A stretch of 64,000 bases of DNA from the IMG/VR virus record IMGVR_UViG_3300003323_000920. One strand, 5' to 3'. Made by a program: the position numbers and the translations under genes. The stretch is from a virus. Below are positions 10,400-57,757 of the stretch, piece by piece (within the stretch, counting starts at the first letter, position 1; every line of letters starts with the position of its first letter). The notes below the pieces were generated by a model. That model worked only from the letters and a program-made list of their open reading frames with translations. It was not told the origin of the DNA and ran no database searches.

Positions 10400-10439
10400 C
10401 AAATATAAGAAAAATAAGTTAATTGGAAAATAGAAAAAT
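10400..10439 (-). promoter_or_regulatory. TATATTTG promoter element plus 19-nt motif AATTGGAAAATAGAAAAAT
   Basis: caaatata at 10400-10407; the motif at 10421-10439 recurs exactly, inverted, at 42320 and 42383. Confidence 0.6.
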
Positions 10440-39985: not shown

Positions 39986-41014
39986 AATAATAAGATTTTA
40001 CATTAATTCTTTAATACCTAAAAGGGAGACAATAGTAATATAATCCTGTTGAGTTAAAGCCGCATTGATAGTAGTAAATTGCCTGTCTGCTTTACCGTCT
40101 AAATAATTCGTTTCTATTAGATAGAATTCTCCATACATCCCAATACAACATTCTAATGTTGTGGGGCTTTTAGTATGACGATAAACCTCAAACAATGGTT
40201 TATCCATTATTAACTCCCATCCTTTGGAAATTAGAAATTCCCTATTTATTGCATTGGGCCGGTTCATCATTGCAATAGATAATGGGGTTGTTGGTGTTTT
40301 CATGATAATATTATTTTTCTTGGCTGTTATACCATTCTATAAACTTAATTACCGCATTATAAACAGCACTTAGTTTATTATTTTTAACTCGAATTTCAAA
40401 ATCCGGAACATTCACAATTTGGGGATGTGAATGTAATAATATAAATCCTGGTCCTATTTCAAACCAATAGGCATTGGTAATTTTACTGTCTGTTAAAGAT
40501 TCAATTTTTTCTACTACTCCCATTATCCAGTCCCATGAATTATGGTATTTCATGCTTTCTACATTCATCTGTTCACAATTATAATTATATTCGCCTGTTT
40601 CATCATTTGGAAGATATAGTAAATTTATACCGTTTGGTCCTTCGGTTACTGAAGGCTTCCAACCCATGAATTTTGCAATAACTATATTATTACTAATAAT
40701 TTGGGCTGTGGCTTCAGATGTTAAATTTTCCATAATAATAGGTTTTTATGCGAAAAGTAAAATAATTTATTTTTCGTTAATGGTTGGTATACGCCACCTT
40801 CCGCTATTATCTTTAATAGCAAGAATTTTCACCACATAACCGTTATTATACCTTATTGATACTTTACTATAACCATGTCGAGTAGCGTACATTTTAGCGC
40901 CCCTTTCCGTCATACTCACATCAATATGTTCACCGTTTTTATTTATCACTCCATAAGTGTGTGCCATAATAATAAGTTTTAAAATGTAAGGACTAAATAT
41001 TACCCCTCCGCATT

Positions 41015-41097
41015 CAATAGTAATATGCTAAACCTATCCTCTTTACAGGGGAACGGCGGGATTTGAACCCCCATATTAGCCCATCATATTACTATTG
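41015..41097 (-). ncRNA. structured element: 13-bp stem enclosing a tRNA T-arm-like hairpin
   Basis: caatagtaatatg (41015-27) / catattactattg (41085-97); minus strand GGGGG-TTCAAAT-CCCGC inside. Confidence 0.35.
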
Positions 41098-41539
41098 CCC
41101 ACCCTTGGGAAGTGAGTGTGATGCGTTAATTTATTTATTCAGGTAATTCTACTATACCCAACTCTTTTAATTTTTCTTTATCCAAAGGATAAAATAAAAT
41201 ATCCTCAATGCGTGCTAATGTTTTAAATTTCCCATCGATAGTAATACCCATTACAGAAGGAATAAAACCGGCTGCTAAATATTCCTTAACCACTTTAAAT
41301 TTCATATTTCTACCAATAAGGCGAAAATATTTATCAGTTTTCATAATCCATTGATTTAAAATATGTTAAATAAATAACAAGGAAATTAACAAAAAATAGA
41401 TGTATTTTTGCACCGTTCAAAGTTACATAATACATTCATTTAATGTTAACCCCTTGTTATTTAATATGATAAATGATTTGTAAAAGTAAATAACCTCATT
41501 ATGCCGTGATCAGCTTTACCCGTTATAGTGATATTCAAG

Positions 41540-41880
41540 TTAAGGGCCTACTATTCCGGTAGGTAACCGGTGAAATGAATACAGCGGCTCCGTGAATGTT
41601 ACCCAAATTATTTACCTTCACAAATCAATGAGATAATCAATTTTTATTTAATACGGATCGTTTAATGTGATCCTTTTCGCGGATGCCAACATTAGGGACA
41701 AGTCAACCTAACGGCGTGTATCTCGCTACCTTTCCTGCTGTTTTATGATGTGGTTCTACCACTTCAGGGCGTACATGTTACATAGGCTCATACGCTTGCC
41801 TTTATTGGTTACTGCCAATTATCAGGAGGAAATAACATTTCCCCATGACGGTTACTATAATTTTCACCGGTTACAACAAT
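41540..41880. ncRNA. candidate large structured ncRNA
   Basis: 13-bp closing stem 41563-75/41862-74 plus five internal hairpins; no credible ORF. Confidence 0.45.
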
Positions 41881-42168
41881 CCACGATCATAGAAATAATA
41901 AGGGGTTTGCTTTTAAATCAGCCTTATCCTTATTTGTGGTAGTTGATTATTCTACCTTTCAACGATTATATCTATAACCTCCAAATTGTTTGACGTTTGT
42001 TAGCTGTACGTGTTGTAAATAATCCTTATTGCTTACCATCTTGTGGGCAGCATTCGTTCGGGAATGTATATCTTCACTACAACTAACAATAAAAGAACTG
42101 CTGCATTAAACACATTTCCTACTACCATATCTATAAAAATGCCCTTAAATTAGAAAGGTAGTTTATCA

Positions 42169-42176
42169 CAAATATA
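42169..42176 (-). promoter_or_regulatory. TATATTTG -7 element
   Basis: caaatata directly adjoining the first 39-nt repeat. Confidence 0.5.
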
Positions 42177-42181
42177 TTGCC

Positions 42182-42291
42182 GGTATCTGTTCCCGTGCTT
42201 AGTAAGGCACGTTATCTGTTGCAGGCATAAAAAGAACTTTGTTTGTCAACTTGGTATCTGTTCCCACACTTAACTAGGTGTGTTATCTGTT
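42182..42291. repeat. two 39-nt hairpin-containing repeats separated by 32 nt
   Basis: ggtatctgttcc-cgtgc-ttagtaag-gcacg-ttatctgtt and ggtatctgttcc-cacac-ttaactag-gtgtg-ttatctgtt. Confidence 0.9.
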
Positions 42292-42306
42292 TCATCGTTG
42301 CCAATA

Positions 42307-42314
42307 CAAATATA
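42307..42314 (-). promoter_or_regulatory. TATATTTG -7 element
   Basis: caaatata, with 24-nt direct repeats upstream. Confidence 0.55.
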
Positions 42315-42316
42315 CA

Positions 42317-42403
42317 CCCATTTTTCTATTTTCCAATTTTTTTATCATATTTTTTTGTCATTGTTTTGTCAGTTATTTTCCCATTTTTCTATTTTCCAAT
42401 TTT
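42317..42403. repeat. 24-nt direct repeat cccatttttctattttccaatttt (two copies)
   Basis: 42317-42340 and 42380-42403. Confidence 0.85.
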
Positions 42404-42624
42404 CCCCAAACAGTACGCAATCCCCTTAAATACCTACATCACTAAGAAAGTATAAACCATAATAAAGAGAAAGAAAGGAGTAAATAGAATATACTTCGGG
42501 AGAATACATTTATTACATTCCCATTTATTCAATTATTCTATGGCCCATTTAATTTGCTACTGTTTATTATTTGTAGTCATTTAATCAGCTTTGACCTGGT
42601 TGTTGTGCTACGAGATGTTCGTAG

Positions 42625-42642
42625 ATACGAATCGATTCGTAT
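42625..42642. repeat. perfect 18-bp palindrome atacgaatcgattcgtat
   Basis: Read directly; abuts the hairpin ctacga-gatgt-tcgtag (42608-24). Confidence 0.9.
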
Positions 42643-43466
42643 GTTATCGCTATATTATTGCGTATTCGCAGTGTATTATTGCACATTTATTGCGTATTTA
42701 TTGATGTTGTATTGTGTTTACGCCCTTTCTCTAACATACATATCACCACACCATAATGGATTATTCTACTGTAATAAATTGATAAAACCCCGTGTTTATT
42801 TGCCATTCATGCATTATTCTATTGTATTGCATTGTCATTGCTTATTATTTATTATTATTTTTTCCTTTTTCCTAATGAATTAATGAATGATTGGACCAGG
42901 AAGTGACCGGGGGGATACCGGCAGGTTGAAATTTATGATGGGGGCTGAAGAATGATGTACACTACAATCCAATACACATAGCGAAATTCCAATTTCAATG
43001 AAAATCAATAATTTAACAAATCAAATTCTGGCCAATTATTTCAATTTTTGGCAAATGTTTGTAAGGATTTTTACAATTTTCCTGACAAAAACAAGATTTT
43101 AAACATAAAAATCAATAATTGCAATAAAAACCTTCTCTGCATGGAGGTCGAAGAGTGGAAAAGCTAACAGATCCTGTAAAATGATGAATATTTTCAGCAA
43201 AATCCCAATAAATGATGAAAATATCCTACATTTAATATGATAGAATACTTTGTTACTTCTGGTAGAAGTATTACTGTCTTTAGATACAAATAATAAGGCC
43301 CCACGTTTCTACGGAGGGGCTTCTTTATTGAATGCTATTTATATAAAGACAAAATACCAGGCGAGAACACCCGGTATCCATTTCTTTCAAAGTAGAAGTT
43401 ATCTCCCCAATATCGAGGATTGAAACAAAGATATTATGTAGTCATATAAATATTGTTAATTAAACG

Positions 43467-43796
43467 TTAACGCTTTTCATCTGGAATTGTATCATACCAT
43501 TTCCAAGCATCATCTAAAACCCACTCCAGCTCCTCGATAGTGGAAAGATTAAATTCTGAAATTCCATCATTAAAAGGCATTGCTACCAATTGGAATATTT
43601 CAGCATTTTTTCCCTCTTCTACCCTGGAGTAATCTTTACTTACATGTTTTACTACGGGGCCGGTTTTATCCATATTTAATACACCAATAAGAGTAACTGG
43701 CGGATCCATTCTCAATATGTACTCAAAATCTGGCTCATAAGGATTTTTAGCCAATAAATAATTACTCATATAATAAAAAAATTTTAATAAAATCAA
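43467..43796 (-). CDS. hypothetical protein (moron-like; likely start MSNYLLAKN)
   Basis: Isolated ORF flanked by terminator-like hairpins. Confidence 0.55.
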   Translation of the reverse strand: MILLKFFYYMSNYLLAKNPYEPDFEYILRMDPPVTLIGVLNMDKTGPVVKHVSKDYSRVEEGKNAEIFQLVAMPFNDGISEFNLSTIEELEWVLDDAWKWYDTIPDEKR

Positions 43797-43846
43797 AGAT
43801 GTTTCAATCTCTCATTTTATTAGGTTAATTATAAGTTAACATAAAT

Positions 43847-43876
43847 AAAAAAACCAGGCAATAATGCCCGGTTCGC
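43847..43876 (-). terminator. intrinsic terminator
   Basis: Minus strand aaccgggc-attatt-gcctggtt-ttttt. Confidence 0.65.
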
Positions 43877-44023
43877 TTATATTTTATTTATCCAATAATT
43901 ATGTGAATGACCCCCTTTAAACAAAGCGGGAATTATTTCGCTCTATCTTAATTGATAATTTGCACAACGTTCTTAGTATAATATTAATGGATATATACGA
44001 TGAAAAGAGTATTGTCGGTTTTT

Positions 44024-44056
44024 AAAAACCACCATAACTTGAAAGAAATGGTGGTA
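44024..44056 (-). terminator. intrinsic terminator (ACCACCAT/ATGGTGGT)
   Basis: 8-bp stem with A5 on the left of the + strand. Confidence 0.65.
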
Positions 44057-44132
44057 TTAGGTGAAAAATTAAATCTTCGGGGAGGGAAAATTGTAGCCTT
44101 CCACTCCTATTGCAATATAACATTTTCCAAAT

Positions 44133-44166
44133 AAAAAACCACCAGTCCTGTCTGGGAACCTGGTGG
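44133..44166 (-). terminator. intrinsic terminator (CCACCAG/CTGGTGG)
   Basis: 7-bp stem with A6 on the left of the + strand. Confidence 0.65.
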
Positions 44167-44247
44167 CCTGTCCTTAATACTTAGAGGGACCATACTTTTC
44201 TAAATATCAAGACCGCAATAATATAGCAATTCTACGATTTGACAAAT

Positions 44248-44715
44248 TTAATATTCCTCATTAGGACTTATTTCCCTAAAAATCAGCATTTTTTTCTCTT
44301 TATGAATAATCTGTTCAATCTTCATTACCTTATTCCCTTTCCTTATTACCCAATAATTTGCCGCTTTTTTTATATTCTCCTCATCAAAGCTCTCAACCAA
44401 TGCCTTTAATACAATACTATCTCCAGGAATAAGACAAGTAGTTACAGAAAGGCCGGTAAACTTGTTAAATGCAACCATAACCTTACATTCAATCTCACTA
44501 TCGTACCATTCCAGTGAATAAGCCTTATCCTGGTACCATCTCTTATTAAAGGTAATACTGGAGTCTCCCCCAAGAATCCGGGCGCTTTCCCTAACCCCTT
44601 CCTCATTTAACCCCAGTAGATATTGACTCCTCACCTGGTTACTTCCCACCAGGAACAAAACAACCATCAATAGCACTTTCATAAAAAGGAATTTACCAAA
44701 TATATCAATTTTCAA
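44248..44715 (-). CDS. exported protein (signal peptide), moron-like
   Basis: MKVLLMVVLFLVGSNQVRSQ Sec signal. Confidence 0.6.
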   Translation of the reverse strand: MKIDIFGKFLFMKVLLMVVLFLVGSNQVRSQYLLGLNEEGVRESARILGGDSSITFNKRWYQDKAYSLEWYDSEIECKVMVAFNKFTGLSVTTCLIPGDSIVLKALVESFDEENIKKAANYWVIRKGNKVMKIEQIIHKEKKMLIFREISPNEEY

Positions 44716-44792
44716 TAATACTGAACCAAAAATTTTTTGAAAAAATTAACTGGTAAATAGAATAATAGAAAATATCATTGGAAATTATTACG

Positions 44793-44800
44793 TAAATTTG
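44793..44800 (+). promoter_or_regulatory. TAAATTTG -7 element driving the plus-strand accessory array
   Basis: Consensus match just upstream of the first plus-strand ORF. Confidence 0.55.
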
Positions 44801-44816
44801 TAGGAAATAATAGGAA

Positions 44817-47800
44817 ATGCAATTAGAAGAATTACCCGAACCGGTGGGATCTTTTATAATTAAAAATTGTGGCGATTCTTTAATGTTAGCTGATGGTGCA
44901 TATTATCACTATTCGCAAGTATGTGTTCTACTTAAAAAGTATGTGGAAGAGAAACTGAAAGATATGATAAAACAACGGGATACTGCATTAGACGAAAGAG
45001 ATAATGCAAGAATCTGGGTCAAGTCCCTTCAAAAAGAACGGAATAAGGCAATTGACCATCTAAAATCGTTAAAAAATTTGATTAGTAAAGATGATGAATG
45101 GTCTGCGTTGAACCTATGCCACTATTTGAACAACGAACTTCAGGAATTTTTTAATTCAATTAAATAAAATGAAAATACCAAGATTTATAAAGAACTATAT
45201 AATGGGGAACTACGCAACGTGTCCCCAATGCGGTGAACCAACTCTTTGTCAAGTACCAAGAGGTGATAGTTGTGACAACTGTGGGTACTGGGTATATTAC
45301 CCTTAATGATTAAATAAAAAATAATATAAAATGGATAACATTAATAATGTGTATAGAACCAATGGATGGTTGATAATAGGTATCATATCACTTAGTATAT
45401 CTTCAATGATCAATGGAACTGACAACATTCAGCACAATAGAAAAATCAGAAAACAGCAACAAACAATAGAACAATTATCCAGGAAAGTTGATTCTTTAAT
45501 AATTCTTCAAAATAAAAAGTAACTGGATATGGATTCTGGAATGTTCAATGGCTTTTTTGAAGGACTGCTTACAATATTCATAGTTGGAGTTTTAACCTTT
45601 GGTACAGTTGGGTTCTTTATAGGTAAAAAGGTTGGTTATAATAAAGCCGTTAAAGAATTTGCCATGGGTAAGATTCAACTTAAAAAAGAAGTAAAAATTG
45701 ATAGCACATATAAACTAATACGAAAATGAATGGAGTTTGGACAAAAGAATGGCAACCGTTTACTGGGTATTATGAAAAACATATGGTTGATATTAAACTA
45801 AAAAATGGGGAAACAGTACTGTGTTGTTGGCCGAACGCAGGATTTATGAATCCTTGTTCTAATGAAGGAAATCCTCAAAACTATGAACACATACCTTATA
45901 AAGAGGTTACTGAGGTAAGATTAACTCATGATAAAATGTGGAATTAAATGAAACAAATGTGGTTTGCCGTTTGTGGAAACTGGGAACGAAATACCTCAAC
46001 TGGAAAGGAAACTAAGCTCCAACAAAAAATATACTCTGATTGCAGCACCCAAGAAGAAGCACTGGGTAAATATGTTCTTGAACATTCAAACGCTATTGAA
46101 GGATACAAATTATATACTTATCAGGTAACGACTTTTACTCCTTCTGAAGTTGAAGATAACATACATTATATCAGATCAATCGACCTGTTAAGGCAAATAG
46201 ATAGTATTCTAAACAGTACTCGAGTAGATATTATGGCAACTAGTCCAATTGCTGAAAATGTCAGAATATTCCTTAATTCTATTGATGCACAAAAATGAAA
46301 ACAATAATAATAAATACAGAAAACACGGAAATAACAATAGACGGTAAGAAATACATTCTTATTCCAGATGATGTCCCCGCTCCCAAAGAATCCGAACTCA
46401 AGACATTTGAAGACTGTTGGAATAAGATCAAACCTAAATGGTTTCTAAATAGTAGCAATAGAATTTGTGAAGCATCTGACCCCACATTTAATAATTTAAC
46501 TAATAATTCAGCTAACCAACTCCCAACAGAAAAATCGGCAAAGCAAATACAAGCAACAATAAAACTTCATGTAGTCAGCCACGCATTACAGGGAGAATAT
46601 GTCCATTACGGGAATCAAAAGAATTATAATTATGTGGTATTGTTGAACAATAAACGTGAACTAGATGTGATGCAAGCGTTCAATGTATACTCTCCGTTTT
46701 CATTTAAAGATGAAGAGACTGCCCGAAAATCAATCGAGATAGCAAAGGATATTTGGTTGGAATATTTTGGAGTAAAATAGATTAGAATGAAAACAAAGCT
46801 CTTAAAAAGGATCCGATCTAAATATCATTATGTGTATCGTGAAGGAATGTGGATAATATATCGACTACCCTCCTTCCCTATTGGATATTGCGAAACAACT
46901 CATAAAGCTCTCGATATTATGGCAGCTCCGATGTTGGCATTTAGTGAACTGACAAGGTGGTATCGGAAAGTATTTCATCTACATGGCACTTGGGGAAAAT
47001 TTCATATTTATTATCAAAGAAAAAGAAAATGACAGGATTAGAAAGAAAGGCATTTGATGAAATTAAATCTATTATAAATAGAATGCAAGTAAGTGTTACA
47101 ATAATGAGAAATTATGTTTCATTTCCTCAAGATAGACAGAAAGAAAAAATACTTTATTATGAAGTAATAGACACCTACGATTCCGAAAAATATAAACTTA
47201 ATAAACTATTAAAAGATTTTGAAGAATGAAACTAATACTAATCGAAAACAAAATCTATAAAGTACCTAAAAAAGTATTTGAAGCACTTCAAAAACTAAGG
47301 GAAGAAGAACAAATAGACTACAAGGCCGGATTGGTCTTGGATGAATACTGTGATTATATTAAAAATGGTGATACATACGGAGTACGGTACTTAGGAGAAG
47401 TAGAATTCCAAAAATCTGAGAAAATTCCATTTTAAATGTGGACCTACGAGAACTTACTAAAAATAGTAAACAAAAGAGAAAAAATGGAAAAGACAAATAA
47501 AAAATGTCCAAAATGTAAAAGTAATAATCTCTTTCTTACTGAAATATGGAATGGACATACGATCTCTTGGGAATGCGTAAATGGTCAACTTAACTTACCT
47601 GAAGGAAATTGTGAAGTGGGATCCCCTGTAAAAGTAGAAAGTAGATGTAAAGAATGTGGGCATTCTTGGACAATTAGAAATGTTACGCAAATCCATCAAA
47701 CACTTATTTAACATGCCAAAAGAAATAACAATAAAACTAACGTTCGACGAAACATGGGATAGTTACGAGGAGGAAAACATTGCTGATGACTTCTATGTGA

Positions 47801-57685: not shown

Positions 57686-57757
57686 CAAATTTACTTATTA
57701 TTTTCCAAATTTTTTTATTTTTCTATTTTTCTATTTGAAATGTTTTCCCTATATTTG
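57686..57757. promoter_or_regulatory. divergent Bacteroidota-type promoters
   Basis: caaattta (57686-93, minus) and tatatttg (57750-57, plus) with an A/T motif between them. Confidence 0.65.

Follow-up and report, generated by a model that had tools for sequence, protein, structure and literature searches.

The crAss-like Cellulophaga phage phi14:2 produces abundant early non-coding RNAs, whose function is unstated, from two long intergenic regions (g004-g006) of its early block (Drobysheva et al., bioRxiv 10.1101/2020.03.07.982082). One of these RNAs is a tmRNA by both ARAGORN and Rfam: its gene (NC_021806, 4031-4500, plus strand), which is absent from the RefSeq annotation, sits in the g004-g006 gene-free gap where the paper places the abundant early lncRNAs (bioRxiv 10.1101/2020.03.07.982082), carries the tag peptide GSSVQKLAMVA* (ARAGORN) and matches RF00023 at 46.0 bits (E = 2.6e-16), just under the 47-bit gathering score. 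The other stretch has no unusual fold (z -0.28). Two further groups of described RNAs are relevant: GOLLD and ROOL, large multibranch RNAs carried by phages, often near tRNA genes; and phage early leaders (lambda nut, the RNase III site of the N leader, rrn-type boxA), in which a promoter is followed by small hairpins, a long untranslated leader and a long hairpin before the first ORF.

How does the locus described here compare? The window (the whole stretch of DNA analysed, 64,000 nt) belongs to an environmental crAss-like phage and codes for a crAss-type large terminase (TerL; phrog_6681), a DNA polymerase, a primase and helicases; the best GenBank relative of its TerL is that of Leptolyngbya phage Lbo-JY46 (38%), with those of Cellulophaga and gut crAss-like phages next. 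The genes form two divergent sets, one extending leftward from 44.7 kb to position 1, the other rightward from 44.8 kb. No ORF of note is found at 41345-43466, and within this gap an initial annotation had singled out 41540-41880 (hereafter the element) as a multibranch RNA candidate of about 310 nt, closed by a 13-bp stem. As in phi14:2, a kilobase-scale ORF-free stretch lies in a crAss-like early block, co-oriented with the early genes. Unlike phi14:2, the window holds no tmRNA, and the element has no sequence or covariance-model similarity to the phi14:2 lncRNAs; moreover, expression was shown in phi14:2, whereas transcription of the leader considered below is a prediction.

The description of the stretch as ORF-free holds: no credible ORF appears under table 11, nor does one open when TAG is read as Q or TGA as W, and stop-codon recoding was rejected on that ground. 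The minus strand of the element contains no ORF of at least 30 aa. That unrecognised small proteins might account for the element, an alternative raised in the initial annotation, comes down to the sole plus-strand ORF (65 aa, 41745-41942), but this frame is not called as a gene, has no homologue that we could find and opposes the local gene direction, and recoding adds nothing to it; we regard a coding role as scarcely credible. Downstream, the first minus-strand ORF (69 aa, 41135-41344, with its ATG at 41344) has a single match among 5.8 billion proteins, namely itself. Because this adjoining ORF has no other homologue, the neighbourhood of the element is considered variable.

The setting fits a non-coding RNA: the element is ORF-free, forms a G+C island (40%, where most other ORF-free stretches have 21-35%) and has credible minus-strand promoters upstream of it. 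Boxes had been reported upstream at 42169 and 42307, and both are there, as minus-strand copies of TATATTTG at 42314-42307 (P1) and 42176-42169 (P2); we take this octamer to be a Bacteroidota -7 type box, TAnnTTTG. It occurs 13 times in the window, and five copies lie in gene-free DNA or at the 5' edge of a gene and face the gene beyond (10400, 42169, 42307 and 44697 on the minus strand, 57750 on the plus strand). A T-rich 18-mer, TTTTTCTATTTTYCWATT, is present four times where none is expected: at 10421-10438 (minus), and at 42321-42338, 42384-42401 and 57718-57735 (plus). Because five of the 13 boxes face genes and the 18-mer accompanies boxes, P1 and P2 have the appearance of genuine leftward promoters. 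At 10.4 and 57.7 kb, the 18-mer stands 13-20 nt upstream of a same-strand TATATTTGCA box; the two copies at 42.3 kb face away from P1 and P2. Such a placement may point to a control site that is divergent or works in either orientation.

In the reading that we tentatively favor, at somewhat less than an even chance, a long structured untranslated leader of the early operon is probably transcribed leftward across the region, which is itself non-coding. Host RNA polymerase would transcribe the minus strand from P1 and P2, and the stretch would form a non-coding part of an untranslated leader of ~0.8-0.95 kb that precedes the main leftward operon (early and replication genes). The element is found 290-600 nt downstream of P2, in a ~820-nt leader that ends at the ATG at 41344. 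The transcript would present, in this order, two 39-nt hairpin repeats, the G+C-richer segment and, immediately ahead of the first ORF, a long AT-rich hairpin; within this leader, the 13-bp helix could close a domain of ~310 nt. Such an arrangement resembles lambda- and rrn-type leaders in architecture only: unlike those, the leader contains no boxA-like antitermination signal, and no N-like or Nus-dependent signal was identified in it. The leader reading is supported by sequence features, by the lack of coding capacity, by the promoter-like boxes and by a strong fold of the whole leader; from these, we infer its transcription, its strand and any function, be it in processing, in the control of read-through or in RNA stability. 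The G+C island and the phi14:2 precedent also count in its favor.

For the whole leader (41345-42180), the minus strand folds at z -5.2 and the plus strand at -3.85 (20 shuffles per strand). Locally, the most significant fold lies outside the flagged element, in a long, imperfect, AT-rich hairpin on the minus strand (41363-41470), directly upstream of the first ORF start, which scores z -3.46 with none of 200 shuffles as good. This hairpin may be a processing, attenuation or promoter-proximal site. It also holds a minus-strand TAnnTTTG box (41425-41418).

What, then, of the element itself? Its parts are all in place. A sequence check confirms the perfect 13-bp inverted repeat, with GTAACCGGTGAAA at 41563-41575 (which would form the 3' side of the stem in a minus-strand RNA) and TTTCACCGGTTAC at 41862-41874. 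The 286-nt interior (41576-41861, minus strand, G+C ~40%) carries hairpins of 5-8 bp, among them every one that had been listed: ggatc/gatcc (41655/41669), ttagg/cctaa (41692/41707), gtggt/accac (41750/41758), gcgta/tacgc (41769/41791) and ggaaat/atttcc (41828/41837). The small cctac/gtagg hairpin that abuts the closing stem (41547-41563, arms at 41547/41559) is likewise present, but the claim that it is shared with an element at 57.8 kb reduces to a trivial 5-mer; the two elements have no sequence similarity.

The stems do not add up to a supported multibranch fold. By RNAfold, the 341 nt of the element reach -92.4 kcal/mol (z -3.2) on the plus strand and -94.1 kcal/mol (z -3.1) on the minus strand, with GC-corrected MFE residuals of -2.3 and -1.9 sd, respectively, against 375 windows of the same phage. 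When the 13-bp stem is left out, the interior scores z -1.49 on both strands and 12-18 of 200 shuffles fold equally well; the z of about -3.1 derives almost wholly from the closing stem. How unusual is this stem? Perfect 13-bp inverted repeats with a gap of at most 400 nt are seen three times in the window, against 1.7-2.2 expected from dinucleotide shuffles, whereas repeats with at least six G/C, as here, are expected just 0.027 times per window. Given the interior score and these repeat statistics, we rate the closing stem as moderately unusual and cannot tell the "multibranch" interior from chance. The multibranch candidate of the initial annotation is therefore upheld as to its component stems and unsupported as a fold beyond the closing one; since it rests on one inverted repeat, it is not to be counted as an RNA gene as things stand. 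At present, the result is useful mainly as a negative one.

Nor is the strand named by the fold, because both strands fold equally well. On the minus strand, the mean pair probability of the closing stem is 0.71-0.94 in four contexts and 0.09 in 41345-42180; in that one context among those tested, the ensemble is dominated (0.89) by a rival pairing between 41608-41627, inside the element, and an outside minus-strand partner at 41474-41493 (20 nt, 90% complementary). A word confined to the leader and absent from the rest of the window, CTACCTTTC, occurs three times (41726 and 41951, plus orientation; 42155, inverted), and its copy at 42155 pairs with the copy inside the element in the global fold of the minus strand.

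The plus strand offers a reading of its own: an RNA that would start at the TATTTTTG box at 41403, a plus-strand TAnnTTTG match, run through the element and stop at terminator-like hairpins (42194-42211 and 42265-42282). The two 39-nt repeat hairpins are both scored as terminator-like on the plus strand, and the closing stem is stable on this strand in every context (pair probability 0.84-0.92). However, TAnnTTTG occurs about once per 690 nt, so a single box is weak evidence; all genes on the left flank read from the minus strand; and the terminator tails contain few T. We judge a plus-strand RNA very improbable.

Chance is a more serious competitor. The stretch may be a fast-evolving spacer in a variable early region, perhaps debris of lost genes or tRNA genes, without selected structure, in which the 13-bp repeat and the hairpins arose fortuitously; we hold this to be a substantial possibility, if a doubtful one. 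It accords with the ~2 perfect 13-bp inverted repeats expected per window, with the interior z of -1.5, with an adjacent 69-aa ORF that has no homologue but itself, and with a decayed T-arm remnant 450 nt away. Against it, a repeat this rich in G+C is rarely expected, the G+C island and the z of -5.2 for the whole leader point to constraint, and a search of the region with the ORFs of all fetched loci detected no pseudogene remnants. The T-arm in question is a lone one of tRNA/tmRNA type, with a 3' acceptor-like strand (41047-41075), enclosed by a second perfect 13-bp inverted repeat on the minus strand (41015-27/41085-97). The fold of 41015-41097 on this strand reaches z -1.5 only, no tRNA or tmRNA is called there, and the segment looks like a decayed tRNA remnant. 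A split tRNA or tmRNA that would use this T-arm was rejected, with noise-level ARAGORN scores and 9 bits in Rfam.

Comparison with relatives bears on the same question. The closest reachable relatives by TerL are three IMG/VR contigs (G001-G003, 48-54% identity), and only one of them covers the region: G003 (108 kb, 93% complete, TerL 48%), which is syntenic at large scale. Searches by BLAST and with a single-sequence covariance model find no counterpart of the element in it, as the chance reading would have it, and its ORF-poor gap holds intact tRNA-Gln and tRNA-Arg, which sits well with an origin from tRNA-gene debris. Wider searches, which used BLAST, nhmmer and the covariance model, gave the same picture. 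The model (R1) finds nothing in G001-G003, phi14:2 or 72 other loci; blastn finds no match to the element DNA in GenBank phages; in IMG/VR, the element was not found by exact DNA patterns, neighboring proteins or TerL; no relative with its DNA turned up among GTDB genome contigs; and none of the 80 JGI metagenome loci of the 140-aa neighbor family, all below 40% identity, matches it. Among 401 genomes of the family around a Ferruginibacter (Chitinophagaceae) MAG, the sole match is a chance one of 32 nt in a SusC-like gene, without extension. One closer relative is known, from a 14-kb Logan contig that encodes P0002, a homologue with 64% identity to the neighboring 140-aa protein.

The arms could also act as DNA. 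They might be regulator or initiator sites, engaged in operator looping or marking a replication origin, or the ends of an invertible segment. The repeat is perfect, with an ACCGGT palindrome in each arm; GGTTAC occurs four times in 312 bp; an AT-rich stretch (41345-41500, 20-24% G+C) adjoins the element; and the strand switch and the cumulative GC-skew minimum are near. Yet the GGTTAC excess is lost after correction for post-hoc motif choice, true iterons are absent, the GC skew merely tracks gene orientation, the segment contains no TAnnTTTG promoter, and neither a recombinase nor an initiator is among the ten ORFs scanned. A DNA-level role is, in our estimate, distinctly improbable. Three specific forms were tried and rejected: GGTTAC iterons, which fail the same motif correction; an inverton, for which the repeats are present but there is no TAnnTTTG box inside on either strand and no recombinase among those ten ORFs; and a MITE-type element, given that the flanks, ctattccggtag and aacaatccacga, show no duplication and that the element is single-copy in the window, with none in the 401 genomes of the Ferruginibacter-MAG family.

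Does the element belong to a known RNA family? The Rfam scan of the whole window gives no match at gathering score; Rfam 15 likewise has no gathering-score match for GOLLD, ROOL, tmRNA, group I/II introns or YrlA/Y RNA, as far as these families are in the release. With E up to 10 over 40800-44900, the sole match inside the element is to Acido-Lenti-1 (18 bits, 29 nt). Compared with GOLLD and ROOL, which do not match at E up to 10, the element is smaller and its structure is only a candidate. ARAGORN calls no tRNA or tmRNA gene in the window, with noise-level split candidates appearing at relaxed thresholds only. A retron msr-msd was rejected: the inverted repeat is present, but no ORF of reverse-transcriptase length adjoins it, the nearest being 69, 109 and 155 aa (the latter two have no Pfam match). 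A Y RNA was also set aside, no TROVE/Ro protein being among the ORFs scanned.

A stronger version of the RNA reading, which we consider unlikely, would make the element a discrete, selected domain of ~310 nt that belongs to an undescribed family and mirrors, in the early operon, the structured RNA with which the late operon of the same phage begins. If true, each of the two main transcription units in this crAss-like lineage would open with a large folded RNA that directly follows a TATATTTG promoter; and, should the fold be real, it would strengthen the growing signs of an investment by crAss-like phages in long non-coding leaders. The element at 57.8 kb in the same phage is the nearest parallel: both are G+C-richer islands of ~330 nt just downstream of a TATATTTG box, with MFE residuals of -2.9 sd at 57.8 kb and -2.3 sd at 41540-41880. 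The two differ in lacking any sequence similarity, and paralogy was rejected for this reason. Relatives of the 57.8-kb element were not found in G001-G003.

Further upstream in the leftward direction, 42420-43330 comprises ~900 nt without a credible ORF, the sole frame being one of 109 aa (42554-42883), which has a TTG start. This segment is bounded on the left by T-rich promoter-like repeats, and terminator-like hairpins at 43299-43379 are readable on either strand; inside it, the words TATTATTGCG, TATTATTGCA and TTTATTGCG are repeated at 42650-42700. The segment might yield a second non-coding transcript or serve as a control region at the DNA level.
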